The notes: generated from the letters alone by a model not told the origin. Counted from the first letter of the stretch, positions 9,766 to 57,992 are shown. The stretch is 64,000 nucleotides of DNA from Candidatus Nanosyncoccus sp. (GCA_045649305.1 JAZRPR010000003.1:830-64829), one strand, 5' to 3'. Program-made: numbers and translations.

Positions 9766-12432
9766 ATGAGACAAAAAACTAAGTATTTTCTGTTGGCACT
9801 AGCTTTTGCTGGTGTGTCAATAATTATTAGCAAAGCCACTCTGGCTGCGGGGAGCTTTGGGCTAGAAAGCGCCACTGTTTTAGATAAAGCTACGGATGTA
9901 GTGGCCGAAAACCCAATCGTTTCTGGCAACACTGCGACTTCGACAATTGTTTTTCACCTGCTAGATGACTTTGTCACATATAATCTTAGCCTCAAAAACT
10001 CAACCACCACCTCATTCAAGATTCTCGACATCACTGACAACAATACAAACGAGTTTGTAGAATACACTTACGACAATCATGCAGATGAAGTTGTTGATGC
10101 GGGCCAAGCACTTGACCTGGAAGTTACAATTACTTACATACAAGAACATTTAGACGATGATGATCGTACCCAAAACAACGATGTTACGTTTGTTATTTCG
10201 TATCAAGATCTTCATACCGGAGTAGTAGAAGAGGAAGAAGTCAAAATTATTCTAGTTCCTAATACTGGTGAGGCCGCCTCAGACTCAGTATCAGCAAACA
10301 TTGCATCAAATGTCTTGCTAATCGTCGCCATTATTACTGGCGCCGTTTTGGTGATTGTTATTTTGCGTAAGAAGAAGGGCGCTGCAACTATCCTAGCGTT
10401 AGTTATCACTGTTGTTGCCGCGAGCGTATTGGGCATTAGTGCGATCGCCGAAGAAAATGACGCATCGGATATGAACGTGAATATGAACAGCGAAATTAGG
10501 CTTCGCGACCAAATGTGTGGTGAAGTATATTGGAAAGACCCAGACACTGGCGCGGATGTTTATATGTCTCCAGATGATTTTGGTTGTGACGATTACGATC
10601 CGGACAATTTGGTCTACTTTGGAGATATTTTCAACCCTAGCTGGATTCCTGCACCTGATGGATTAATGGTTACTGGCTTTAGATTTACTGGCACGAATAC
10701 TGATGTGGACCTTGATGCTCTAATTTTGGATGACTACAGTGTGACACTTCTTTATGGTGAAAGAACCTATAGTATTACTTATGATTATAATGGTGGGACT
10801 GTGGCAACTGCCAATCCAACCACAGTTAAGAAAACTGACCAAGCATTTACGTTAAATAAGCCAACAAAAGATACAGCATACTTTAATTGTTGGCAAGGTT
10901 CTAATATTAGTTATGGCGAATGCTTAGAGGACGTAACTATCGATCCTTCTACCGTTAATGATGATTTGGAATACAAGGCCTTATTTCATCATGAAGTAAT
11001 CGTGAACGACCAGTACGGAAATGAACTCGTACATGACTTTATCCCAGAAGGTCACGATGGAATTACTTATTCAAAAACAATCTATCCAGAAGGCTATACC
11101 GTAAATAGTGGTTCTTGTACCAATGGGCAAAGGTTGAGAATCGTGACAAACCTTTACGAGGTGGACGGTTTGACAAACAATACTGTCTGTACAGTTAATA
11201 TTACACCTAAAACATATGATGTTGAACTAGTTGTAAATAATGGTTCTGGGTCCGCTACTAAGAGAATTAATCACGGTCAAGACGCGACATTCACAGGCAT
11301 AGCACCAAACACTGACTATACTTTAATTGAAAAAGTAAGTTGTACTAATGGGCAAACCGCAATCTATTCTAATGGGACTGTCACTGTAGAGAATGTGACT
11401 GGCAGTACTACTTGTACGATGAATGCTTTGCCTCCGACAATTCATACTATCACATACATGCAGGAAATGACTCCAGAGATTTGTGCTGCAACTACCACTC
11501 CAAGTAGCAGTCTCGAAACTGGCTCGCATATCGACTGGAATGGCTCACATTATGGCGACTCAAACTATACTCCGAGAACTGCACTCATCGATAATCGCGA
11601 TAACCAAAAATATCTCATAGAGAAACTCGCCGATGGTGAATGCTGGATGATGCAAAATTTGAGTCTTGCACTGTCTACAGAAAAAACATTTACAAGTGAA
11701 GATACCGATCTAAACACGATAAGTTCCTATACTCCTATTCGTAATACGGAAAACATAATAGTAAATGTCCAAAACCCTTACGGCGAAGACAAACAGGCAC
11801 TATATACGGCGCAACTTTCTTGGTACCCTGAATTCCCATATTTTGTGGGTACGGACGAATTCCCTTATAATGGCGTTACTCCATCAGATAGCCCTACGGA
11901 TGACTCGGATGAATATCTCTGGCAAAAGACGGGCAATCTCTATTCCGCTTCAGCGGTTACTGCGGGTACATACACGTTTGCTGCTGGCGCGGACTTCTAT
12001 ACTCAAGATACCATTTGTCCAAAAGGATGGACTTTGCCTGATAATGCCCTTATCGATCCTAATGGCACTAATCCTCCTAATGACAAATCGCTCTACAAGC
12101 TTATGTACACCTATTCACCTAATAATCAATCCACGGATTATTTGCATTTCGCCGAATCCGGTATCTTCTCGCAAACATTTGGTGGTTATTATCAAAGTCG
12201 CCAAGGTGCCGGTATGTCTGGCTTTTCAACTATGAACGGTGTCAAATATTATACTGAAGTAGCTTATTTGGGCGAATATTTTCGAGATGCCTATGGTACT
12301 GGTAGGAGTAATCCATTTATGCTCGCGTATGCAAGATTCTTGTTCCCAAATTATCCGTATGTGCAAATTCAGACTAGTAACTCAAACGTTCTAACATTTC
12401 ATGGTGCGTACGCACGTTGTATAGCTAGATAA
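9766..12432 (+). CDS. Surface protein: signal peptide, N-module, internal VPNTG-TM-RKKK, second signal-like segment, InlB B-type repeat, C-terminal FISUMP-like domain
   Basis: YSITYDYNGG...NKPTK repeat; IDNRDNQKY..KLADGECWMMQNL, GNLYS, ICPKGWTLP and terminal ARC match the Fibrobacter succinogenes major paralogous domain pattern. Confidence 0.75.
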   Translation: MRQKTKYFLLALAFAGVSIIISKATLAAGSFGLESATVLDKATDVVAENPIVSGNTATSTIVFHLLDDFVTYNLSLKNSTTTSFKILDITDNNTNEFVEYTYDNHADEVVDAGQALDLEVTITYIQEHLDDDDRTQNNDVTFVISYQDLHTGVVEEEEVKIILVPNTGEAASDSVSANIASNVLLIVAIITGAVLVIVILRKKKGAATILALVITVVAASVLGISAIAEENDASDMNVNMNSEIRLRDQMCGEVYWKDPDTGADVYMSPDDFGCDDYDPDNLVYFGDIFNPSWIPAPDGLMVTGFRFTGTNTDVDLDALILDDYSVTLLYGERTYSITYDYNGGTVATANPTTVKKTDQAFTLNKPTKDTAYFNCWQGSNISYGECLEDVTIDPSTVNDDLEYKALFHHEVIVNDQYGNELVHDFIPEGHDGITYSKTIYPEGYTVNSGSCTNGQRLRIVTNLYEVDGLTNNTVCTVNITPKTYDVELVVNNGSGSATKRINHGQDATFTGIAPNTDYTLIEKVSCTNGQTAIYSNGTVTVENVTGSTTCTMNALPPTIHTITYMQEMTPEICAATTTPSSSLETGSHIDWNGSHYGDSNYTPRTALIDNRDNQKYLIEKLADGECWMMQNLSLALSTEKTFTSEDTDLNTISSYTPIRNTENIIVNVQNPYGEDKQALYTAQLSWYPEFPYFVGTDEFPYNGVTPSDSPTDDSDEYLWQKTGNLYSASAVTAGTYTFAAGADFYTQDTICPKGWTLPDNALIDPNGTNPPNDKSLYKLMYTYSPNNQSTDYLHFAESGIFSQTFGGYYQSRQGAGMSGFSTMNGVKYYTEVAYLGEYFRDAYGTGRSNPFMLAYARFLFPNYPYVQIQTSNSNVLTFHGAYARCIAR

Positions 12433-12505
12433 ATAAATCTCACAAAAATCACAAAAATCAAGTGTTTATTTTAGCCACAACCGTGATAAAATAAACATAA
12501 GTAAA

Positions 12506-15500
12506 GTGGAGCAAAAATTGAAAAAGCGGGGTAGCATGATGTTGGGTACTGGTGCGCACGTAAGGAGGCGTAATTATTTCCCACTTATTATTACTGCGAT
12601 TTTCGTATTTGGTTTTGTTGCTTCACTTATTTCCACTCTTACTACTTCTGCAGCGGCAAATATTTTTAAGATTCAAAATGTCGAGCAGACGGGTATTTCT
12701 GCCTCTGCCGAGGGAACTATTACTGGTTTTGATGAGCAAACAATTTCGAGCGGCGTAGTATTCCACCACCTTAACGACTATGTTGAATATACTATTACTT
12801 TAAAGAATACTGATACGAGCGCGCATATCATTGAGGCTATTACGGATAATAATAACAACCCATATATAATATATGATTATTTAAACCACCAAAACGAACA
12901 AATAGGTGCCGGAAGTGATCTTGTCTTTGTAGTTACTGCTAGATATGTAAACCAAGCTGATATGAACGACCGTGTCAGTGTAAACAACGTCAAGTTTAAT
13001 ATTAAGTTTTTAGACATCGAAGAAGATGATGAAGTAATTGTCGTGCCAGACACTGGTGCGAGCACGAGCACTTCTGGTGGAGCTTCATTTAGCGCTATTT
13101 CACTCATTATTTCTGCGCTTGGCCTTATTCTAATTTGTGTTCTTGTCATGAAGAAACAAAAGAAAGTAAGCAGAGTGATTGTTGCTCTCATGATTTGTAT
13201 TTCTGCTATCACCTTCGCCACTACCGTAAAGGCTGAGGGAGCTTCTGTTAATGGGTTTACTTTCACTACGGGATTTGCCTTTAGGGATCGCTTGATTGTA
13301 ACTTATAAAGACGGAAACAATAACGAGCACCAAGAAATAATTAACTATGGTAGTTTATTAAACCTTGAAAACCCTGTAAAAAATGGATATCGCTTTGCCG
13401 GTTGGAAATATGCCGACGGATCTACATTTATTGCTTCTGACCCAATTACGGATGATATTTCGATTGAACCTGTGTTTACGATTGATACTTATATTATTTC
13501 TTATGACCTTGCTGGTGGTACTACTTCTGAACCAAACACTACTAACTACACCGTGAATGATATTGTGATTTTGCACGAACCAACCAAAGAACATTACGTG
13601 TTTGCTGGTTGGACTGGCACGGGTTTAGATGAACCAACAAAGAATGTTGTAATACCTGCGGGTAGTACTGGAGTCAGAAGCTACACGGCAACATATTCAC
13701 CAATTGATTATGATATTACGTATTCTAATATTACCTTAGAGGAGCTTGCACTTTTGAACGCCCCATTAACTTATAATATCGAGACAGCTCCATTTACTAT
13801 TGGTAAACCCGCAACTCGGCTTGACGATGACGAGGATCCAATTTATACATTTGTTGGCTGGAAAGAGGGAAGCACGATTTCTGAGACTATTACTCTTCCT
13901 GATGCAAATTCGATGGGGCCAAAAATCTATGAAGCACAGTGGGCTCCAGTTGATGCTACAACGTATACTATTTCTTATGAGTTAAATGGTGGCACGACTG
14001 CTACACCTAACAGAACTACTTTTACTAAGAATGATGAGACCTTCTCGATTATTAATCCTACAAAGACCGGCTATACATTTAAGGGCTGGTCTGGGACCGA
14101 TCTAACTGGTGATACCAACACAGATGTACAAGTCGTTTCTGGTACTAGAAAAAATCTTTCGTTTGAAGCTCACTACACTGCCAATACATACAAAGTCGTT
14201 TTTAATGCTAATGGTGGTACTGGCAATATGGCGGATCAAACTCTTACCTATGATACGGCCGCAAATCTAAATGCTAATACTTATACCAAAACTGGTTATA
14301 GTTTTGGTGGTTGGAACACTGCAGCTGGTGGTACGGGAACTGCTTATACCAATGGGGCCGAAGTAGAAAATTTAAAGACCGAGGGCGAAATAACACTCTA
14401 CGCTCAGTGGACGGCAAACAGCTACTTGGTCGCCTTTGATTGCAATCATGTTGGTTGCGAAGGTACTATGGAAAACCTCCCAATGGTTTATGACGTAGAA
14501 AAAGCCTTACCACTCAATGTGTTTAGTGTTCCTGGTTATGCCTTTACTGGCTGGGGCACTGAGGCGGCAGGTGACGGCGATAGCTATGGCAATGGCGCCG
14601 AGGTAAACAACCTCGCCGCTACTGGTGCAATTACGCTCTATGCTCAGTGGACCACCGTAGATTACGACATATCCTACGAACTAAATGGCGGCACTGCCGA
14701 AAACCCAGCTACCTACACTACAGAGCAGACCATTACGCTAAACAACCCAACCAAAACCGGCTACAACTTCACCGGTTGGAGCGGTACAGATCTTGATGGC
14801 GAGGACGATATGGAAGTCACTATCCCAGCTGGCAGTACTGGTAACCGCAACTACACCGCCAACTGGTCTGACCCAATTAACTACAGTATTGAATACACCG
14901 GTCTAGATGCTCTCACCGAAGAAGAACTTGCCGCATTCACCAACCCTACCACCTACACCATAGAAAGTAGCTTTACGCTTTCGAATCCAGCTCACCTTGG
15001 TTACCAATTCGTCGGCTGGACCGGTAGCAATGGCGACACGCTACAGACGACTGTAAATGTTGCGGCTGGCACCACAGGAAGTCTTAGCTATCACGCTAAC
15101 TTCGCCGCCAACACCTACACCGTGGTCTTTGAGAAAAACCCAGGCACACATAATATTGGTGGCGACATGGACGCACAAGCCTTTATCTATGACACCGAAC
15201 AAGCTCTTACTGACAATGCCTTTACTATCGACGAACCAGGCTTCAAATATGGTGGTTGGAACACCGAAGCTGATGGCTCTGGCACGCACTACGACGATAA
15301 ACAGACGGTAGAGAATCTCACCGCTGAAAACGAAGGCACCGTAACGCTCTATGCTGAATGGGGCAGGACACCATATACGATCGCTTTCGACAAAAACAAC
15401 GAAAACGCAACTGGCGAAATGCTTCCTATCGAGAATATTACCTACGGTGAACATATTACCTTGCCACAAGTAGGTTTCGTTTATAACGACCACAAAATCG

Positions 15501-18379
15501 CAAGCTGGAATACTGAGCCAGATGGTTCTGGTCGTAGCTATGGAGATCAAGCTGACGTCGTAAACGTCGCTATCGATGGCACAGTTACGCTTTATGCGCA
15601 GTGGCGCGATACAGAAGCCGTATTCTTGGGTGGCACCAGACCAAAAATGAAATGGATTGCACTAGCTGGTGGCAACCAAGCGAACATTACGGCGATTAGG
15701 CAATATGCTGGTACGCCGGACGTAACGACCTTTACGGATGACAACATCGTTTCAGAAGAAACTTCTCCAGACCCAATTTATACATGGTATGATAACGGAA
15801 CAATCTACTACTGGAGCGAGGATAATCATCCTGCACTTAGTGCATTCTCAAGAGAGATGTTTGATGGACTTACGAAGGCAGAAGTAATTGAGGTCAAAAA
15901 CCTAGACACGTCAAATGTGACCAATATGATTTACATGTTTAGGAACTGTTCAAGCTTAAAGAGCCTAGATCTGAGTAATTTCGACACAAGTAAAGTAACG
16001 ACTATGCATCAGATGTTTAATGGTTGCAGTAGCTTAGCCGAGTTAGATGTATCTACGTTTGATACTAAAAACGTAACAGATATGCACGGGATGTTCGCTA
16101 ATTGTAGCGGATTGACAGAGTTAGATGTAAGTAATTTCGATACAAGTAATGTGACTACCATGACGGGTATGTTCCAGAACGACAGTGGCTTAACTGAGAT
16201 AGATATTACTGGATTTAATACGGAGAATGCAAAAAGCATTAGCGGCATGTTCATGGGCTGTACTCGTTTGACCGAAATCGATTTAAGTCACATGAACACC
16301 CAAAAAATTACGGATATGTCAAATCTATTCAGAGGATGTACAAATCTTGAAAATGTGATATTTGGCGAGGACTTTAAAGCAGAAGAAGTAACTACGATGC
16401 GAAATATGTTTATGGGTTGTACGAGTCTAAAAGTACTAGATTTGAGTACTTTCGAAGCAACAAAGGTAACAAATGTTTACCAAATGTTCCTATATGACAA
16501 CCAGCTCGAAACGATATATGTCACAAATCCAGAAGCATTCTCAAACATAACCGATTCTCAGGATATGTTCCATAGTTGTGGCTCGCTAGTGGGCGGAATG
16601 GGCACGGTGCAAAGTCAAATTTATAGATCCGGTGAGCGTGCGTTTATAGACTTGGGTCCTGATAGGCCAGGTTACTTCACGGACAAAACCAAACTCAATG
16701 TATTTTACTATCCAAATGATAACGAAGCCACCGGCACAATGGAAGACCAGCTCGGGGTTGTAGTCGGTGAAGGCGTGCGACTGAATGCAAACCAGTATAA
16801 AAAGACCGGATTTAAATTTGGTGGCTGGAATACAGAACCAGATGGCTCTGGCGACCACTATGATGACGAACAAATAGTCACAAAGAATGGTTTCCTGAAA
16901 CTCTATGCTCAATGGGGTGAGAGCCCATACACGGTGATCTTTGATAAAAACGCTGACGATGCACAGGGTAACATGGAGAGCATCAGTAAAATTTATGGCG
17001 AACACTTTGATCTTCCGGCCAGTACATTCACAAGACAAAGTTATATATTCCAAGGATGGAACACTGAAGCAGACGGCTCTGGTAAACACTATGACGACCA
17101 AGAAAACGTCATCAACCTAGATACAGATGGCGAAGTTACGCTCTACGCTGAATGGCTTGAATCAACCGCAATCATTGCAGACCATGGTCCAAACACGGGT
17201 TTTAGCCTAAACATTAAATCGCTCGTTGGTAACAACGGTAGCACTCCGTCTCATGCCAACTATACCGTTAAGAAGATTGTCCGTTCAGACACTGAACCAA
17301 CTGATGAGCAAAAAGCACATCCAAGAAGCAACGTTGCGGCTACGAATTCAAATTTTCCAGTATATATATGGTTCGATGAGCCAACTGGCACCATTTATTG
17401 GTGGAGCGAAGCTGAAACAGTCTTTATGGCGAAGCGTGCTGATTATATGTTTGCAAACTTTAAGGCTCTCGAAAGCGTTGATGTCGAGGATTTTGACACT
17501 TCGCTAACAACCAGCATGGCCGGTTTGTTCAACGGTGATGAGGCGCTTGCGTCAATCGATCTTTCGAATTTCGATACTGATGGCGTAACGGACATGCATC
17601 AAATGTTTAGCGGATGTTCTGCGCTTAACTCGCTAGACGTATCTGGGTTTGACACTGATGACGTAACTAATATGTCATCTATGTTCTCAGGTCTAGCTAA
17701 TGTCTCTAGTCTCAATGTGACGAGCTTTAATACCGAAAATGTCGAGAATTTCAGCGGTATGTTTAGAGGCATGAAAAATCTCACTAGTCTTGACGTTTCT
17801 GGGTTTAATACTGGTAAAGCCACTCTCATGAACGAAATGTTTAGGGATTGTGAAAAGCTTGAAATCATCAATGTAAGCAGATTTAATACAGCAAAGGTTA
17901 CTTCATTTGAGGGTATGTTTAGGGGTTGTAAAGCCGTAGAAGAACTTGACGTCTCTGGATTTGTCACGAGTAGCGCCCAGAACATTTCCGCCATGTTCTA
18001 TGGTTGTAGTAGCATTACGGAGCTCGACCTTCATAACTTTAACACGAGCAATGTTATTTCAATGAATCATACCTTCCTTGGACTAACCAATGTAGAAGTA
18101 CTTGACCTTAGCACTTTTGACACCAAAAATGTTACAGGAATGCAGTATACTTTCTCAAGCGACGTAAACCTAAAAACAATTTATGTAACAGATAAATTCG
18201 TAACCAGCGCGATTCCTGAAAACTCGGCTAGCTCCCAACTCATGTTCTATCAATGTGGCAAACTCGTTGGTGGGCTTGGAACGAAATTCAGTGGCCAATT
18301 CATCAACCACGTCCGTGCTCATATCGATGGCGGTCCAGACAATCCGGGTTACTTCACCGATATTGCAGATAAACCGTAG
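12506..18379 (+). CDS. 1957-aa surface protein: N-module, internal VPDTG-TM-KKQKK, second signal-like segment, many InlB B-type repeats, two BspA/DUF285-type LRR arrays
   Basis: Repeats Y.V.F..NGG.G.M..Q...Y......L..N.Y.K.GY.F.GWNT...G.G..Y; ~25-aa repeats LD(L/V)S.F(D/N)T.(N/K)VT.M..MF. Start GTG 12506 or a nearby ATG. Confidence 0.8.
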   Translation: MEQKLKKRGSMMLGTGAHVRRRNYFPLIITAIFVFGFVASLISTLTTSAAANIFKIQNVEQTGISASAEGTITGFDEQTISSGVVFHHLNDYVEYTITLKNTDTSAHIIEAITDNNNNPYIIYDYLNHQNEQIGAGSDLVFVVTARYVNQADMNDRVSVNNVKFNIKFLDIEEDDEVIVVPDTGASTSTSGGASFSAISLIISALGLILICVLVMKKQKKVSRVIVALMICISAITFATTVKAEGASVNGFTFTTGFAFRDRLIVTYKDGNNNEHQEIINYGSLLNLENPVKNGYRFAGWKYADGSTFIASDPITDDISIEPVFTIDTYIISYDLAGGTTSEPNTTNYTVNDIVILHEPTKEHYVFAGWTGTGLDEPTKNVVIPAGSTGVRSYTATYSPIDYDITYSNITLEELALLNAPLTYNIETAPFTIGKPATRLDDDEDPIYTFVGWKEGSTISETITLPDANSMGPKIYEAQWAPVDATTYTISYELNGGTTATPNRTTFTKNDETFSIINPTKTGYTFKGWSGTDLTGDTNTDVQVVSGTRKNLSFEAHYTANTYKVVFNANGGTGNMADQTLTYDTAANLNANTYTKTGYSFGGWNTAAGGTGTAYTNGAEVENLKTEGEITLYAQWTANSYLVAFDCNHVGCEGTMENLPMVYDVEKALPLNVFSVPGYAFTGWGTEAAGDGDSYGNGAEVNNLAATGAITLYAQWTTVDYDISYELNGGTAENPATYTTEQTITLNNPTKTGYNFTGWSGTDLDGEDDMEVTIPAGSTGNRNYTANWSDPINYSIEYTGLDALTEEELAAFTNPTTYTIESSFTLSNPAHLGYQFVGWTGSNGDTLQTTVNVAAGTTGSLSYHANFAANTYTVVFEKNPGTHNIGGDMDAQAFIYDTEQALTDNAFTIDEPGFKYGGWNTEADGSGTHYDDKQTVENLTAENEGTVTLYAEWGRTPYTIAFDKNNENATGEMLPIENITYGEHITLPQVGFVYNDHKIASWNTEPDGSGRSYGDQADVVNVAIDGTVTLYAQWRDTEAVFLGGTRPKMKWIALAGGNQANITAIRQYAGTPDVTTFTDDNIVSEETSPDPIYTWYDNGTIYYWSEDNHPALSAFSREMFDGLTKAEVIEVKNLDTSNVTNMIYMFRNCSSLKSLDLSNFDTSKVTTMHQMFNGCSSLAELDVSTFDTKNVTDMHGMFANCSGLTELDVSNFDTSNVTTMTGMFQNDSGLTEIDITGFNTENAKSISGMFMGCTRLTEIDLSHMNTQKITDMSNLFRGCTNLENVIFGEDFKAEEVTTMRNMFMGCTSLKVLDLSTFEATKVTNVYQMFLYDNQLETIYVTNPEAFSNITDSQDMFHSCGSLVGGMGTVQSQIYRSGERAFIDLGPDRPGYFTDKTKLNVFYYPNDNEATGTMEDQLGVVVGEGVRLNANQYKKTGFKFGGWNTEPDGSGDHYDDEQIVTKNGFLKLYAQWGESPYTVIFDKNADDAQGNMESISKIYGEHFDLPASTFTRQSYIFQGWNTEADGSGKHYDDQENVINLDTDGEVTLYAEWLESTAIIADHGPNTGFSLNIKSLVGNNGSTPSHANYTVKKIVRSDTEPTDEQKAHPRSNVAATNSNFPVYIWFDEPTGTIYWWSEAETVFMAKRADYMFANFKALESVDVEDFDTSLTTSMAGLFNGDEALASIDLSNFDTDGVTDMHQMFSGCSALNSLDVSGFDTDDVTNMSSMFSGLANVSSLNVTSFNTENVENFSGMFRGMKNLTSLDVSGFNTGKATLMNEMFRDCEKLEIINVSRFNTAKVTSFEGMFRGCKAVEELDVSGFVTSSAQNISAMFYGCSSITELDLHNFNTSNVISMNHTFLGLTNVEVLDLSTFDTKNVTGMQYTFSSDVNLKTIYVTDKFVTSAIPENSASSQLMFYQCGKLVGGLGTKFSGQFINHVRAHIDGGPDNPGYFTDIADKP

Positions 18380-31896: not shown

Positions 31897-32577
31897 CTAT
31901 TCCTCCTTGGGTCCATACTGATCATAATACTTGCCGATTGCCACCAAAGTGTCTGTATCGAGCAGATTTTTTGAGACCATATAATCTATGGTCTCGGGCA
32001 TAGTGACGATTGCCGATGCCGGGAAACCATAAAGATCGGTGATTTCCTGAAGCGCAGTCTTCTTGCCACCATTGCCGACTTCGTGTCTGTCCAGAGATAC
32101 CATCGACCCAACTATCTCAATCTTCGCGTTCTGAGCGCGCAGGATCGGGACGGTTTCTTCCATGGATTTTCCAGACGTAGTTACATCTTCGACGATTACG
32201 ATGCGATCGCCATCTTTCAGCTTTGCGCCGATCAGGGCGCCGCCCTCGCCATGGTCTTTAACCTCTTTACGATTTGAGCAATACCGAACATTCATTCCGT
32301 AATTGATTTCAAACACCATAGCGACAGCTACGCTCAGGGGAATGCCTTTATAGGCCGGCCCAAAAACTACGTTGAAATCCGTGCCATACTGGTCACAGAT
32401 TGCTTCTGCGTAGAATTCCGCCAGCTTAAAGAGCTGCTCCCCACTGCTAAATATCCCCAAATTCATAAAAAATGGGGATATTCTGCCAGACTTAAGCTCG
32501 GTCTCTTTGAAAATCAAAGCCTCGCTATCCAGCATAAACTGAATGAATTCTTCTTTCATCTGCTGTTTTTTTCTCAC
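31897..32577 (-). CDS. pyrE: Orotate phosphoribosyltransferase
   Basis: LKSGRISPFF, FGPAYKGIP, RKEVKDHGEGG, IVEDVTTSG (PRPP loop). GTG 32577 chosen from SD spacing. Confidence 0.93.
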   Translation of the reverse strand: MRKKQQMKEEFIQFMLDSEALIFKETELKSGRISPFFMNLGIFSSGEQLFKLAEFYAEAICDQYGTDFNVVFGPAYKGIPLSVAVAMVFEINYGMNVRYCSNRKEVKDHGEGGALIGAKLKDGDRIVIVEDVTTSGKSMEETVPILRAQNAKIEIVGSMVSLDRHEVGNGGKKTALQEITDLYGFPASAIVTMPETIDYMVSKNLLDTDTLVAIGKYYDQYGPKEE

Positions 32578-32708
32578 AAAACTCAACCTCCTTTATACGT
32601 GCAGATTTTTAAGACTCAAAAAAGCATTAAAGATGCTTTTTCGATAATATTTTAACATAAAACTCTATATCGAGCAAGACGAACAGGGGTGGCAAAGGGG
32701 TCCGTATC

Positions 32709-53504: not shown

Positions 53505-53993
53505 CTACTTAAGGTTTTTCACAAACTTCACGCCACTATTGTCGAGATTCTCAAATAATTCTACTGTCTCATAGTTTTTCATCTCATCCTCCGAGACCGA
53601 TTCTAGACGCTTGAACATCGCCTCCATCTCGTCTTCTGGAATTTTACGAGCGCGCGCACGATTGTTCTGGAGGCAGAGCTCTTTTTTGGCGCGTACGATA
53701 ATCAAATGGAAGGTGTAATCCGGGAAGCGTTCGATAAACCAATCGCGATCGGCGCGAGATGGAGAATTAGTGTCGACCAAAATGTCGGCTCCGTCCTCCA
53801 TGGCGGTGCGAATGGCGATTGCAAAAGCCTCCCAAACCCGTTCACGATGTTTGTGAATTAGGTCGGAACCAAAAAATACAGCATAAAAATCTTCAATCGA
53901 AAGATGGCGCAAATTACGCTCCCTTGCAAGCCTTGTCGCGAGCGTCGTCTTGCCGGCCCCACACGGTCCAGTCATCAAAAACAAGTTTGCCAT
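53505..53993 (-). CDS. P-loop kinase (AAA_33 / polynucleotide-kinase-like)
   Basis: GPCGAGKTT, DTNSP.RADR, RN.AR.R.IPED.M lid pattern. Confidence 0.75.
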   Translation of the reverse strand: MANLFLMTGPCGAGKTTLATRLARERNLRHLSIEDFYAVFFGSDLIHKHRERVWEAFAIAIRTAMEDGADILVDTNSPSRADRDWFIERFPDYTFHLIIVRAKKELCLQNNRARARKIPEDEMEAMFKRLESVSEDEMKNYETVELFENLDNSGVKFVKNLK

Positions 53994-54031: not shown

Positions 54032-54108
54032 GGATCTTTAGCTCAGTTGGCTAGAGCGTACGATTCACATTCGTAAGGTCACTGGTTCGAGCCCAGTAAG
54101 ATCCACCA
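54032..54108 (+). tRNA. tRNA-Val(CAC)
   Basis: GGATCTT/AAGATCC acceptor, TACGA-TTCACAT-TCGTA, encoded CCA; terminator AATCGGC/GCCGATT at 54120-39. Confidence 0.96.
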
Positions 54109-54232
54109 AATTATAAATGAATCGGCATTTTGGCCGATTTTTTATGGGAAACTTTCTGTTGAGCATCCAAAAAACTATTTGTGCCGATGCTACAATGGAC
54201 GATGAATAAGAAATATGATATAATCTTACCTA

Positions 54233-55315
54233 ATGGAGAAGAAGCCACAGGTTATCAACGTCGGCGATGTATTAGTCGAGTTTAAAAGACCGGTTTCTGA
54301 ACCCCCTTTTAAAAAGATCACCATTAAATACCCTTCTAGGCTGGATGCCGCTTGTACCGATCCTGGAAAATTATATAGTATAAAACCAAAAGATAATATT
54401 TTTCCAACAGGACAGATTAATTTTTGTGTTAATATATGCAAAAAAATTACCGTAGAGCCAAGAGAAGATGATGCTATTATTGTTACCGGCAATTATGGTC
54501 GAACAGTTTTGGTCAAGCATGCTGCTATGCTAATGCAGAAAGCCCTAAACATAACTACTGGTTTTTCCATTAATATAGACGCGAGCCTGGATCTAAGGCA
54601 TTGCGGCCTAGGTTCGAGCGCGTCAGCTATACAGGGCGTAGGTGCTGCGATTAATGAATTATACAATAACCCGATAAAGCCAATGGACTTGATTAGATAC
54701 CTTGCCGGCAATCATGCCGAAGAAATAGATGGGGATAACGAGCATCTTGTGTTCGTACAATCGGTTGGTGGTTCTGGAGTCTGCGGGCATTATGCTGGTG
54801 GACTAATCATTATGACTGGTAGAGCAGTACCCATAGTAAGGGTAGATTTGCCAAAAGATTTAAAAATCGTTTTCGGCATCCCAAATCAATATTTGCACCC
54901 TGACGCTAACACATTGATCACAGATGAAATTATGACATCAGAAAGTTTTAAGAAAGCCAGTATGGATTACTCAAAAGAAATTGCATATAGACTCTTGAAC
55001 GACGCTATCCCAGAGTTAGTGGATGGAAATTTCAAACCGATGAAGGAATTTATTTTTGACTATCGCTGGGATATGGGTAGTATAAAAAACTGTTCTTATG
55101 CATATCCTGGCATCGTCGATTTAGCGGAAAAGATGAGGCCACTAAGAAACGATAACGATATAGACTTTATTTTTCTCTCTACGGCAGGTCCTGGATTTTG
55201 CATAATCACCAAAGATATAAACAAAGCCGAAAATATTTTCAGGAGACTAGATATGAAAACTTTTGTCACAGATATTCATAACGGTAAATATCAAATTATT
55301 GAAAAAGTTAAATAA
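54233..55315 (+). CDS. GHMP-superfamily protein, beta-RFAP-synthase-like
   Basis: HCGLGSSASA (GHMP motif), N-terminal YPSRLD (cf. PSRLH), C-terminal STAGPG loop. Subfamily call is inference. Confidence 0.7.
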   Translation: MEKKPQVINVGDVLVEFKRPVSEPPFKKITIKYPSRLDAACTDPGKLYSIKPKDNIFPTGQINFCVNICKKITVEPREDDAIIVTGNYGRTVLVKHAAMLMQKALNITTGFSINIDASLDLRHCGLGSSASAIQGVGAAINELYNNPIKPMDLIRYLAGNHAEEIDGDNEHLVFVQSVGGSGVCGHYAGGLIIMTGRAVPIVRVDLPKDLKIVFGIPNQYLHPDANTLITDEIMTSESFKKASMDYSKEIAYRLLNDAIPELVDGNFKPMKEFIFDYRWDMGSIKNCSYAYPGIVDLAEKMRPLRNDNDIDFIFLSTAGPGFCIITKDINKAENIFRRLDMKTFVTDIHNGKYQIIEKVK

Positions 55316-55328
55316 AGAAAGGAGCAAG

Positions 55329-55895
55329 ATGATTTATTTGACGTCAAATCCAGACAAAATGCGAGAAGCTAAGGAGTTCTTCGGGAAAAAATATGGTCTT
55401 GAGGTCGAAATACTAAATCCGGATTTCGAACCGGTGGAAATACAAGCCTCAACGTGCGCCGAAGTGGTCGCTTATACGGTTAAGGATGCCGCAAATCGAT
55501 TAGGAAAAGCGGTTGTAAAATCTGATGCCGGATTTTACGCCGATGCGCTCGGTGGGCTACCTGGCCCATATAGCAAGTTCTTTGATAGGCAGATTGGCGT
55601 AGAAAAATTTCTACATATGCTCAAAGATGAAACTAACCGTAAGGCAAAGATTGAGCATTGTTGGGCCTATTGTGAACCAGGTAAGGAACCAAAAGTATTT
55701 ATTGGCGGCAGCGAAGGCACGATTGCTATGGAAGAGTCTGGCAAAAGTAGTCGCTGGGTAGATAAATTCTTTATTCCCGATGGCGAGTCTAGGACAATTA
55801 GTGCCATTCGTGATGAAAATTATGAAGAGTCCAACAAATACTGGGGCAATGCAAAACAACAATTAGTCGATTATTTATTAAATAAGGAAAAGTAA
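55329..55895 (+). CDS. Ham1/ITPase-fold NTP pyrophosphatase, divergent
   Basis: TSNPDKMRE, VEIQ, SDAGF..DALGGLPGPYSK, F.G..EG.I. Start ATG 55329 after AAGGAG. Confidence 0.85.
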   Translation: MIYLTSNPDKMREAKEFFGKKYGLEVEILNPDFEPVEIQASTCAEVVAYTVKDAANRLGKAVVKSDAGFYADALGGLPGPYSKFFDRQIGVEKFLHMLKDETNRKAKIEHCWAYCEPGKEPKVFIGGSEGTIAMEESGKSSRWVDKFFIPDGESRTISAIRDENYEESNKYWGNAKQQLVDYLLNKEK

Positions 55896-55897
55896 GG

Positions 55898-57112
55898 ATG
55901 AAATATTCAATAAAAGACTATCCAGACAAAGATGGGTTTTATGGCAAATATGGGGGCAGATTTCTTTCTCCAGAAATGGATGAGGAATTTAAAAGAATAA
56001 ATGATTTTTATCAAAAAATAAGAAACGATGCTGAATTTATCAATGAACTAAAATATATAAGAAAACATTATCAGGGCCGCCCAACGCCAATTACGTATGC
56101 TAAGAATCTTAGTGATAAACTCGGCGGAGCTGCCATTTATTTAAAGCGCGAAGACCTTAACCACACTGGCGCCCATAAATTAAACCACGCTATGGCGTAT
56201 GCTTTAGTAGCCAAAAAGATGGGCAAAACAAAAATTATCGCTGACACCGGCGCTGGTCAACATGGTGTCGCAATGGCCGCCGCCGCAGCATACTTTGGCA
56301 TGGAATGTGATATTTATATGGGCAAAGTTGATGCGGAAAAAGAGGCACCAAACGTTGATCGTATGAAAATAATGGGCACGAATGTTATTGTGGTCGAAGA
56401 TGGAGCTGGCAAATTAATAGATGCCGCAGCCGCGTCTTTTGCGGCGTACGAAAAGGACTACAAGCGATGTTTTTATCCAATTGGTTCTGCACTCGGGCCA
56501 GCTCCAATTCCCCAAATGGTTAGAGATTTTCAGTCTATTGTCGGAATAGAAGCCAAAGAACAGTTTAAGGAAATGACTAATAATAGTCTGCCCGACAAAG
56601 TAATAGCTGTAGTCGGCGGCGGTTCTAACGCTATGGGGCTATTCAGCGGTTTTCTTGAAGAGGAAGATGTCGAACTTGTTGCAGCCGAGGCATTAGGCAG
56701 AATGAAGAACGGGGAAGAAGAGCGGGTAGGGGAACATGCGGCAACGGCCACATATGGCGAGTACCGTACGATGAGTGGGTTTAAAAGTTTAGCTTTGGCC
56801 AACGAAGATGGAACTCCGCACCCTGCATACTCTGTTGCATCCGGCCTTGACTACCCGGGCCTTGGGCCAGAATTGGCATACCTTAAAGAATTGGGCAAAG
56901 TCCATTTTGAAACAATAAATGACGAGGAAGCGATTGGTGCATTCTACCAACTGTCAAAAACCGAAGGAATAATCCCTGCTTTAGAGTCTTCTCATGCGCT
57001 AGCGCTAGCTATGAAAATGGCCCCAAGCCATCCAGGAGAAGCATTCCTAGTAAATCTTTCCGGACGTGGCGACAAGGATATAGACTTCGTATTAAACGAA
57101 TACCGTCAATAA
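55898..57112 (+). CDS. trpB: Tryptophan synthase beta-subunit homologue (TrpB1-type), Asp at the Glu109 position
   Basis: LKREDLNHTGAHKLN (PLP Lys94), ADTGAGQHG, GGGSNA, GLDYPG.GPE, IPALESSHA, NLSGRGDKD. Confidence 0.9.
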   Translation: MKYSIKDYPDKDGFYGKYGGRFLSPEMDEEFKRINDFYQKIRNDAEFINELKYIRKHYQGRPTPITYAKNLSDKLGGAAIYLKREDLNHTGAHKLNHAMAYALVAKKMGKTKIIADTGAGQHGVAMAAAAAYFGMECDIYMGKVDAEKEAPNVDRMKIMGTNVIVVEDGAGKLIDAAAASFAAYEKDYKRCFYPIGSALGPAPIPQMVRDFQSIVGIEAKEQFKEMTNNSLPDKVIAVVGGGSNAMGLFSGFLEEEDVELVAAEALGRMKNGEEERVGEHAATATYGEYRTMSGFKSLALANEDGTPHPAYSVASGLDYPGLGPELAYLKELGKVHFETINDEEAIGAFYQLSKTEGIIPALESSHALALAMKMAPSHPGEAFLVNLSGRGDKDIDFVLNEYRQ

Positions 57113-57274
57113 TCAAGAATATAGTTAATTGGTTGCAGCAAACGACAAGTTAATTATTTTGATGACTATGAGCATGTTTGTGAAAACTTGCAAAATATGC
57201 TATAATATAGGACATAGGATTGGCATTCTGGCAATTTAGCAACGAGATTACGTTAAGGGGAGGTGACGCTATCT

Positions 57275-57862
57275 ATGTCCAGAGAACGAAAGAGGGTGCC
57301 CGAGGGGATTGTATTTTTCTCAGGGTATCATGGTGTCGGAAAGACATATACCGCAACTGCCATGCTCGAAAGTTTTAACGCCAGAATTATAGATTGTGGA
57401 CCACTTATACGGACTCTCTTTAATGAAAGTGGCTTTAATTCTTTCGAAGGCTGGGCGCAGAATATGAAACTAAGACTCGGCTGTAAATGGGACGACGAGC
57501 TACTACTTACGGCCATCAAAGACCGTATTTCTTCAGAAGAGTTACTGTTCATAGTGGGCAACAGAGACATCGAAACTATTCTGTTTCTGTCAGAAAGATT
57601 GCCGCACAAGAATCCGTCGTTGATTCTTTATCTAGAGAAGCCAGTTCCAGTAATAAAAGGTGGGTATGAGCTACGTACAAAAGCGACCTTGACGGATAAA
57701 GAATTTGAAAAAATCTTGCATTCTGGACCGGACAAAAAACTTGGCTTAGTTAGGCAATATGTTGTCGAACATCCAGAGCACTGTAGGCTTATCTACGAGG
57801 AAACTTACGGCAACAATTCGATTGCAGAGGCTATAGCCTTTGTAAAGGAAAAATATCAGTGA
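57275..57862 (+). CDS. P-loop nucleoside/nucleotide-kinase-like protein
   Basis: FFSGYHGVGKT, then IIDCGPLIR. Own TGcTATAAT promoter and GGGGAGG SD; ATG 57275 preferred. Confidence 0.65.
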   Translation: MSRERKRVPEGIVFFSGYHGVGKTYTATAMLESFNARIIDCGPLIRTLFNESGFNSFEGWAQNMKLRLGCKWDDELLLTAIKDRISSEELLFIVGNRDIETILFLSERLPHKNPSLILYLEKPVPVIKGGYELRTKATLTDKEFEKILHSGPDKKLGLVRQYVVEHPEHCRLIYEETYGNNSIAEAIAFVKEKYQ

Positions 57863-57873
57863 ATGCCATTCTC

Positions 57874-57902
57874 AACACGGGAGACTTCTCCCGTGTTTTT
57901 TT
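57874..57902 (+). terminator. Intrinsic terminator
   Basis: AACACGGGAG-actt-CTCCCGTGTT + T-run. Confidence 0.8.
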
Positions 57903-57992
57903 ATCTACTAAAAATTGTATTTATTTCTTAAAAAATCTTTGTGCTTATGATATAATCAAAACATAAACAATAATACTCCTGGTGTGGAGTAA

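Follow-up and report, generated by a model that had tools for sequence, protein, structure and literature searches.

The GHMP-fold enzymes ForT, PyfQ and beta-RFAP (RHP) synthase are C-glycoside synthases that depend on phosphoribosyl pyrophosphate (PRPP) and act in the formation of formycin, pyrazofurin and methanopterin. We analysed a DNA stretch of 64,000 nucleotides from the Saccharibacterium Candidatus Nanosyncoccus sp. (GCA_045649305.1, JAZRPR010000003.1:830-64829; called the window hereafter, with positions counted from its first letter). It contains a module of four genes and 3.7 kb that code for a GHMP-fold protein, a Ham1-type nucleoside triphosphate (NTP) pyrophosphatase, a TrpB-type enzyme and a P-loop kinase with the fold of nucleoside monophosphate (NMP) kinases. 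In the ForT/RFAP systems and in this cassette alike, the GHMP gene is linked to genes for enzymes that make aromatic substrates. In contrast, the partners found in the cassette and its relatives (Ham1, NMP kinase and TrpB, PrnB or U32 proteins) are unlike those of any described C-nucleoside cluster.

A second point of comparison is PrnB, monodechloroaminopyrrolnitrin synthase, together with the IDO/TDO haem enzymes, since a member of the same family, PF08933, holds the place of TrpB in 22 related loci. However, PF08933 is not represented in the window, and no halogenase or other pyrrolnitrin gene occurs in any of the loci. We propose, with a rough probability of 40%, that the locus belongs to a widespread cassette, so far uncharacterised, in a variant that has TrpB as its entry enzyme, and that the product is an indole-type non-canonical ribonucleotide. 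The broader notion that the four genes act on one nucleotide-like small molecule is very probably correct.

A conserved core with exchangeable partner genes

A homologue search with the GHMP protein gave 72 clusters, the most distant at 38% identity. Scanning 185,579 species genomes yielded 57 loci and, with metagenome assemblies added, 61 non-redundant loci in all, which were annotated with length-filtered profiles. Most of them come from metagenome bins, some of which are mislabelled. The hosts are Patescibacteria and gut Firmicutes. The gene coding for GHMP has Ham1 as a neighbour in 51 of the 61 loci and a P-loop kinase of ~195 residues in 45. S-adenosylmethionine-dependent methyltransferases are also frequent, with a main type in 36 loci and a second type in 11. 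The remaining neighbours are PrnB-family proteins (22 loci; PF08933, 109 bits), U32-like proteins (19 loci) and TrpB (10 loci). The U32-like proteins are accompanied by a HisC/CobD-like aminotransferase in 14 loci or by an Asp/Glu-type racemase in five; the aminotransferase of the Firmicutes variant scores 149 bits with TIGR01141 and 127 bits with CobD, and the racemase resembles cysteate racemase.

Several of these neighbours are also found fused. Ham1 and GHMP form a single protein of 588 residues in locus L064, PrnB and GHMP one of 739 residues in L036, and in Firmicutes GHMP and a methyltransferase are joined in proteins of ~572 residues. The distribution of the partners is uneven: a PrnB or U32 protein is encoded beside TrpB in none of 10 loci, as against 39 of 43 loci devoid of TrpB (Fisher's test, 5e-8, not corrected for relatedness), and PrnB and U32 never occur together in one locus. 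The conserved core of the cassette is composed of GHMP, the kinase with the NMP-kinase fold and Ham1, to which a TrpB, PrnB or U32 module is added in an exchangeable and mutually exclusive manner.

In a maximum-likelihood tree of the GHMP proteins, the loci that code for a TrpB with Asp at the position of the catalytic Glu109 form one clade, sister to the loci with U32 and racemase, and this whole group is nested inside a clade of PrnB-type Saccharibacteria. The main TrpB clade displays two gene orders, GHMP-Ham1-TrpB-kinase and GHMP-kinase-Ham1-TrpB. Locus L065, with the order Ham1-GHMP-TrpB and a Glu-type TrpB, is placed elsewhere in the tree, as sister to the Firmicutes U32 clade. Given these two separate placements, TrpB has been recruited to the GHMP/Ham1 pair at least twice, independently. 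This pattern speaks for a functional tie between TrpB and the core, in which TrpB stands in for the PrnB or U32 entry module. Thus, the co-occurrence and fusion of GHMP and Ham1 and the double recruitment of TrpB indicate that these genes form a functional unit. A preliminary description of this DNA, made from the sequence, had taken the GHMP, Ham1 and TrpB genes for an undescribed pathway. Its refuting condition, a lack of co-occurrence elsewhere, did not come true, as GHMP is linked to Ham1 across phyla and even within one polypeptide. No description of the cassette was found in the literature searched.

GreA/GreB-like paralogues of ~155-195 residues are encoded in 27 loci of Patescibacteria and Firmicutes, including L054:11397-11876 and L005:10528-10995. 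They go with the PrnB and U32 variants, some of which bring together a methyltransferase, a U32-like protein, a small P-loop kinase and a GreA-like gene, and never with the TrpB variant; the genome of the window has a single Gre-like gene, located elsewhere on contig C16. Distant GHMP homologues (32-36% identity) are also found in Nocardia wallacei (L059:6860-10101) and Streptomyces (L060:6696-12759), where they are surrounded by genes for a PP-binding carrier protein, an NTP_transf_5 nucleotidyltransferase and an APH-type phosphotransferase, and the open reading frame (ORF) of L060 spans 770 residues, with the GHMP domain as its C-terminal part. A known actinomycete gene cluster was considered as a model for the cassette and set aside, because these homologues lack Ham1 and kinase and lie in a different, uninformative context.

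Layout of the module in the window

The positions of the GHMP, Ham1 and TrpB ORFs, with intergenic distances of 13 and 2 bp, are as first described. The linkage of these genes likewise stands; their number had to be revised from three to four, as the gene for the kinase with the NMP-kinase fold belongs to the same unit, and does so in almost all relatives. The features of the island are the following:

54032-54108, plus strand: tRNA-Val gene (anticodon CAC), left border of the island (ARAGORN)
54120-54146, plus strand: terminator-like hairpin and T-run (AATCGGC-ATTTTG-GCCGATT, then TTTTTAT), read directly
54196-54224, plus strand: promoter-like site (TGGACG, 17 nt, TG-extended TATAAT), consensus match only
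54233-55315, plus strand: GHMP-fold enzyme, 360 residues (Pfam, NCBIfam, AlphaFold2 model, Foldseek)
55329-55895, plus strand: Ham1-type NTP pyrophosphatase, 188 residues, start MIYLTSNPDK (PF01725)
55898-57112, plus strand: TrpB1-type pyridoxal phosphate (PLP) enzyme, 404 residues, Asp at the Glu109 position (TIGR00263)
57178-57206, plus strand: internal promoter-like site before the kinase gene (TTGTGA, 17 nt, TG-extended TATAAT), consensus match only
57263-57862, plus strand: P-loop kinase of the NMP-kinase fold, 199 residues as listed (synteny, AlphaFold2 model, Foldseek)
57874-57907, plus strand: strong intrinsic-terminator-like hairpin at 57874-57897 with a 10-bp stem (six GC pairs), followed by a T-run, end of the module (terminator scan)

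The module of the window is devoid of U32, methyltransferase and Gre genes, and it has no effector or sensor gene.

The GHMP protein is nearest to the ForT/RFAP synthase branch

The GHMP protein of the window matches the Pfam family GHMP_kinases_N (39 bits, cutoff 22.3). Its own family is small, with 355 representatives among 1.84 billion at E <= 1e-3, of which 114 remain at E <= 1e-30. Its residues of note are a PSRL sequence with R36 in motif I, the P-loop RHCGLGSS with H123, and the invariant residues N160, H161, E163 and E164. Motif I of the GHMP kinases is P-x-x-x-x-N-L-G-P-G-F-D. In the window protein this region reads YPSRLDAACTDP, and the kinase-type motif is absent. R36 is invariant, and the RFAP-like outgroups have the same P-x-R.

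The AlphaFold2 model of the protein has a mean confidence score (pLDDT) of 93. In Foldseek searches the top three matches were ForT entries (E 3e-16, TM scores 0.68/0.75), followed by homoserine kinase (0.59/0.70), a modest margin. The RFAP-synthase models also score best in nine of the 10 nearest outgroup proteins. Although identity to ForT is only ~17%, the P-loop of the GHMP protein resembles the QHSGFGSK segment of ForT (H99-S104), and R36 probably corresponds to R19 of ForT, an equivalence by sequence position only. In ForT, H99 and R19 bind the pyrophosphate and the 5'-phosphate of PRPP (PMC8183095).

Sequence scores fall short of the RFAP-synthase and homoserine kinase cutoffs. Among 43 GHMP family members, the best E-values are 1.8e-12 with NF040726 and 9.3e-9 with TIGR00144 (RFAP synthase, cutoff 113.5 bits), far under the cutoffs, and one cassette member at E 1.5e-6 scored 27.5 bits. 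The window protein is similarly remote from the homoserine kinase models (35.8 bits for a cutoff of 194, and 26.1 for a cutoff of 168). Among sequence-level matches, homoserine kinase ranks first for each of the 43 members, and also when the family profile is compared with the Protein Data Bank (PDB). Judged by sequence models, the GHMP protein appears equally far from homoserine kinase and RFAP synthase. It represents a distinct small family nearest to the ForT/RFAP-synthase branch and not a member of it. The label 'RFAP-synthase-like' of the preliminary description thus holds as an affinity, given the Foldseek matches and the nearest neighbours; it does not hold as membership, with scores below the family cutoffs.

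Ham1 and the kinase

The Ham1 protein matches PF01725 (Ham1p_like; 96 bits, cutoff 22.5) and falls below the NCBIfam equivalog cutoffs (124 vs 203 bits and 100 vs 145 bits). Its best PDB relatives are Mj0226 (1b78) and PH1917, of the RdgB/ITPA type. Like these proteins, it has conserved triphosphate- and metal-binding residues: none of the catalytic residues K10, E37 and D66 varies among 49 Ham1 copies from cassettes, and T5, N7, Q39, the GxPGP motif and R104 are invariant or nearly so. In contrast with RdgB/ITPA, the motifs that recognise hypoxanthine and xanthine are missing. RWVDK and KYWGNA in the window protein replace the FGYDP-like (F/Y-D-P) and SHR purine-recognition motifs, and the C-terminal half, which bears these motifs in RdgB/ITPA, is variable across the 49 copies and devoid of them. 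The fusion to GHMP in L064 is a further difference. Ham1 is most likely an active pyrophosphatase with another base preference.

The AlphaFold2 model of the kinase also has a pLDDT of 93, and its top Foldseek matches are AK5, AK1 and UMP-CMP kinase, with TM scores of 0.62-0.69. The Walker A motif has the family consensus GxHGxGKT (GYHGVGKT in the window), in which G21, G26 and K27 are invariant. The window kinase matches no NCBIfam model, and its score with AAA_17 (20.7 bits) is under the cutoff of 27; 22 of 40 members of the kinase family match the NCBIfam adk model, weakly.

A TrpB clade with a replaced catalytic residue

The TrpB of the window clears the cutoff of TIGR00263 (472 bits, cutoff 392) and is 58-60% identical to ordinary bacterial TrpB proteins. 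It has retained their PLP lysine (HTGAHK), GGGSNA phosphate loop, TGAGQHG serine-carboxylate loop, and ESSHA and SGRGDKD motifs. However, it reads IADTGAGQHG, with an Asp residue at the Glu109 position, 22 residues past the PLP lysine. Altered residues had been announced for two of the three proteins, and both cases were confirmed: Asp109 in TrpB, and the loss of the FGYDP-like and SHR motifs in Ham1. Glu109 of TrpB hydrogen-bonds N1 of indole and is essential for indole activation (PMC9512447).

All cassette TrpBs have Asp109, except that of L065. Among the 120 best TrpB clusters of a large protein collection, 44 (at least 66% identity) carry Asp, and the more distant ones all carry Glu. The Asp109 clusters also have GPAPIP in place of GPHP(F/Y)P, with GPRPIP in the most distant one (66%) and GPSPIP in one other, and LHG is changed to MSG in this clade. 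A metagenome TrpB that is 94% identical to that of the window (P0080) reads IGETGAGQHG; within the Asp clade, its residue 109 has apparently reverted to Glu. TrpA (PF00290) is absent from the genome of the window and present in all 14 control genomes. A Glu-type stand-alone TrpB is found in another Saccharibacterium.

The cassette is carried by an acquired island

The genome assembly from which the window comes amounts to 720 kb in 42 contigs and is 94% complete. Codon counts for the island and for the 37 other long ORFs of the window confirmed the AT-richer codons, ATA and AGA, mentioned in the preliminary description. ATA makes up 0.34 of the Ile codons in the island vs 0.055 in the other ORFs, and AGA 0.33 of the Arg codons vs 0.11; the GC content of third codon positions (GC3) is 0.38 vs 0.52 +/- 0.05. 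Overall GC content at 54-56 kb is 0.39 vs ~0.47 in the flanks.

Only two of 37 genomes of the genus, and four of 61 of the order, carry the cassette. TrpB is present in three of 61 genomes of the order and, inside the genus, always alongside the cassette. In Candidatus Nanosyncoccus alces (L013), of the same genus, tRNA genes flank the module on both sides, and in L008 the cassette is preceded by a tRNA gene and a phage-type integrase gene. Therefore, given this tRNA/integrase setting and the rarity in genus and order, the locus is a horizontally acquired accessory island.

On the far side of the TrpB-type cassette, L008 (6231-16978) has genes for an N6/N4 DNA methylase, a SAM-synthetase fragment, a terminase and a portal protein, and this particular cassette is possibly prophage-borne or prophage-adjacent. 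Despite the L008 setting, a phage module was rejected as a general reading, as no cassette was found in phage collections. Tblastn searches among 50,697 phage records gave nothing for the GHMP protein and, for Ham1, four weak Ham1 matches (26-31% identity) and no cassette; a search of IMG/VR gave no relative of the module.

A proposed pathway and the evidence that weighs on it

TrpB is an indole enzyme, and the known substrates of PrnB are tryptophans. By analogy, the entry modules may handle an aromatic, indole-type amino acid. The replacement of PrnB or U32 by TrpB thus provides a second, PrnB-independent line pointing to an indole- or tryptophan-like input. In the pathway that we favour, the Asp109 TrpB would couple serine to an indole-like nucleophile that the cell scavenges from its surroundings in gut or rumen, and the TrpB product would be the aromatic block that PrnB or U32 modules supply in other lineages. 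The GHMP enzyme would then join this block with a ribose-phosphate unit, or activate it with one, giving a non-canonical NMP. The kinase would lift the monophosphate to the diphosphate, and Ham1 would return any triphosphate to the monophosphate, keeping it away from polymerases or controlling its level. Linkage, fusions, folds, the motifs kept and lost and the mobility are established observations; this specific order of steps and the aryl-ribonucleotide product are put forward tentatively. The product named in the preliminary description, a ribosylated aromatic compound or a beta-substituted alanine, is likewise conjectural.

Several findings run counter to this proposal. Some concern the GHMP protein, whose score on the RFAP-synthase model NF040726 is 16.8 bits for a cutoff of 328. 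The 5'-phosphate clamp of ForT consists of G134-R135, S139 and S142, and the ligand R135 seems to have no counterpart in the GHMP protein: when the partial, P-loop-only alignment is extended, G134-R135 falls on G159-N160, with no Arg. In addition, a profile alignment places E163, an invariant residue, opposite the GE of 1fwk, the homoserine kinase of Methanocaldococcus jannaschii, whose Mg-ATP Glu is E130, and from such an alignment the GHMP protein may be an ATP-dependent kinase. E163 is also kept in the RFAP-like outgroups, so that it does not discriminate the kinase branch from the RFAP branch. Finally, known ForT/RFAP-type enzymes need a carboxylate on the ring, and the TrpB product has none.

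Other findings concern TrpB. An Asp-type TrpB with 66% identity stands alone in an Oscillospiraceae contig (L070:5137-8230), right after the gene of an OppA-like substrate-binding protein. In a rumen relative of the window's Saccharibacterium, whose GHMP protein is 93% and TrpB DNA 87% identical to those of the window, the trpB gene has an in-frame TAA at codon 38, where the window has CAA. The same stop codon occurs in two assemblies (L006:9667-10881 and L007:6747-7961) with GHMP, Ham1 and kinase intact, and TrpB may be dispensable or decaying in this relative. In L006 and L012 the cassette itself is preceded by OppA-like genes, and neighbours of this kind may be a clue to where TrpB came from or to a substrate that is imported.

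The supply of PRPP is a further difficulty. PRPP synthetase (PF13793) is missing in the genome of the window, which is 94% complete, and in 16 of 20 genomes that carry the cassette, whereas it is present in 14 of 14 controls. Nor is a convincing phosphoribosyltransferase encoded in any of the three genomes that are closest among the TrpB type. A chemistry based on PRPP is thus not assured. The genome of the window nevertheless codes for a PyrE-type orotate phosphoribosyltransferase (31897-32586, minus strand; TIGR00336, 147 bits, cutoff 107), and either PRPP comes from another route or this enzyme runs in reverse. For that reason, we regard the missing PRPP synthetase as counter-evidence, not as a refutation. 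Taken as a whole, the preliminary description is partly supported: the functional unit stands, as a four-gene module and one variant of a larger cassette, the GHMP protein falls below the RFAP-synthase cutoffs, and PRPP chemistry is not assured.

Genomes of Saccharibacteria are ~0.7 Mb in size and code for almost no biosynthesis. The presence in some of them of a dedicated, exchanged four-gene module for a small molecule points to a product important for episymbiotic life. The cassette spans Patescibacteria and gut Firmicutes and is undescribed in the literature searched. The natural Glu109-to-Asp clade of TrpB is also of interest to engineers who alter the same residue to change nucleophile scope. 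One carrier, Nanosyncoccus alces, has a named strain genome (TM7_G3_2_Rum_HOT_351B), and thus the question may be directly testable.

Alternative explanations

The alternative that survives best, although we consider it unlikely, is that a canonical nucleotide is modified at the NMP level, with no need for PRPP. The logic would be that of phage T4, in which dCTPase, hydroxymethylase and dNMP kinase form a set where an NTP pyrophosphatase and an NMP kinase bracket base modification at the NMP level. Ham1 would convert an NTP to NMP and pyrophosphate, the base would be altered, and the NMP kinase would yield the diphosphate. In between, PrnB or U32 proteins would hydroxylate and methyltransferases methylate the base, or TrpB would add a serine-derived alanyl group to a purine-like ring, and the GHMP enzyme would be an ATP-dependent kinase acting on a hydroxyl group. 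The presence of an NTP pyrophosphatase alongside an NMP kinase, the lack of PRPP synthetase in most host genomes examined (16 of 20) and the kinase-type Glu conserved in the GHMP protein all agree with this scheme. So do the smaller residues of TrpB (E to D, GPAPIP and MSG), which would fit a bulkier nucleophile if they line its site. However, the nearest relatives and the best structural match of the GHMP protein are PRPP-using C-glycoside synthases, not kinases, and PrnB-family enzymes are known only with tryptophans as substrates. Among the genes linked to the cassette, none has a polymerase or incorporation function, and the module is absent from the phage collections.

A bolder scenario, which we hold to be improbable, is that the Asp109 TrpB does not make tryptophan at all. 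Its substrate for alkylation would be a bulky ring of the indole or purine type, which might already bear a ribose phosphate added by the ForT-like enzyme. The result would be a natural nucleotide, previously unknown, with an amino-acid side chain, and its degree of phosphorylation would be controlled by the kinase and Ham1. In this scenario, ultrasmall episymbionts and gut Firmicutes would pass the pathway on horizontally and use it as a signal or an antimetabolite towards hosts, competitors or phages.

There is also a small chance that the genes share no pathway and are merely a salvage set, composed of a stand-alone TrpB that makes tryptophan from habitat indole, an ITPase for house-cleaning, a sugar kinase and an adenylate-type kinase. 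Stand-alone TrpBs without TrpA do occur outside cassettes in Saccharibacteria and Oscillospiraceae, the window TrpB clears the curated trpB cutoff, and the stop codon in the TrpB of L006 and L007 leaves the neighbouring genes intact. Nevertheless, this explanation is disfavoured by the gene fusions, the synteny across phyla, the double recruitment of TrpB and its exclusivity with PrnB and U32. Replacement of the catalytic Glu109, loss of the Ham1 purine motifs and the constant association of TrpB with the cassette in the genus are equally at odds with it.

An even smaller chance is given to a phospho-amino-acid route, in which the GHMP protein would be a serine- or homoserine-type kinase that feeds a PLP partner, namely TrpB acting with O-phosphoserine, the HisC/CobD-like enzyme, or the racemase. 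ThrB-ThrC and PduX-CobD are precedents for such pairs, and TrpB2 enzymes use O-phosphoserine. Homoserine kinase as the best sequence-level match throughout the family and for its profile, the HisC/CobD-like enzyme of the Firmicutes variant and the likeness of the racemase to cysteate racemase are all in keeping with this route. Yet a PLP enzyme is lacking in the 22 loci of the PrnB type, the TrpB of the window is of the TrpB1 type, and motif I is RFAP-like (PxR) and not PxxxxNLGPGFD. The route also leaves the conserved Ham1, the NMP kinase and the Ham1-GHMP fusion without a role.

Least probable of all is a role in phage defence or conflict, with a non-canonical nucleotide made as a signal or a poison, as in the Kongming and viperin systems: the Ham1-like KomB of Kongming (8zsg) is among the PDB matches of Ham1, the cassette is island-borne, rare and mobile, and many of the other variants have a GreA-like gene, but a known defence system was ruled out, since PADLOC found no match for any core protein, the module of the window lacks effector and sensor genes, and phage and IMG/VR collections gave no match.

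Transcription signals and neighbouring regions of the window

The hairpin at 54120-54146, whose stem was also flagged on the minus strand by the terminator scan, is terminator-like; it would set the tRNA-Val gene apart from the cassette and form the left bound of the module. The promoter-like site at 54196-54224 ends 8 nt ahead of the GHMP start, so the GHMP transcript may be leaderless or near-leaderless; the number of promoter-like sites in the region is not above the expectation from shuffled sequences. For the kinase gene, a GGAGG at 57258 precedes the ATG at 57275, which is the probable start. Searches of 18 loci with Rfam at the gathering threshold returned only tRNAs and one pemK element, and no riboswitch or T-box.

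Just upstream of the tRNA-Val gene, positions 53505-53993 (minus strand) code for a P-loop kinase of 162 residues of the AAA_33 type, with weak resemblance to PSTK, Zeta-toxin and PhnN. This gene lies outside the conserved cassette in relatives. Elsewhere in the window, the region 9766-18376 (plus strand) comprises two very long ORFs whose GC3 of 0.36-0.41 is as low as that of the cassette, and from this composition it is probably another acquired region.

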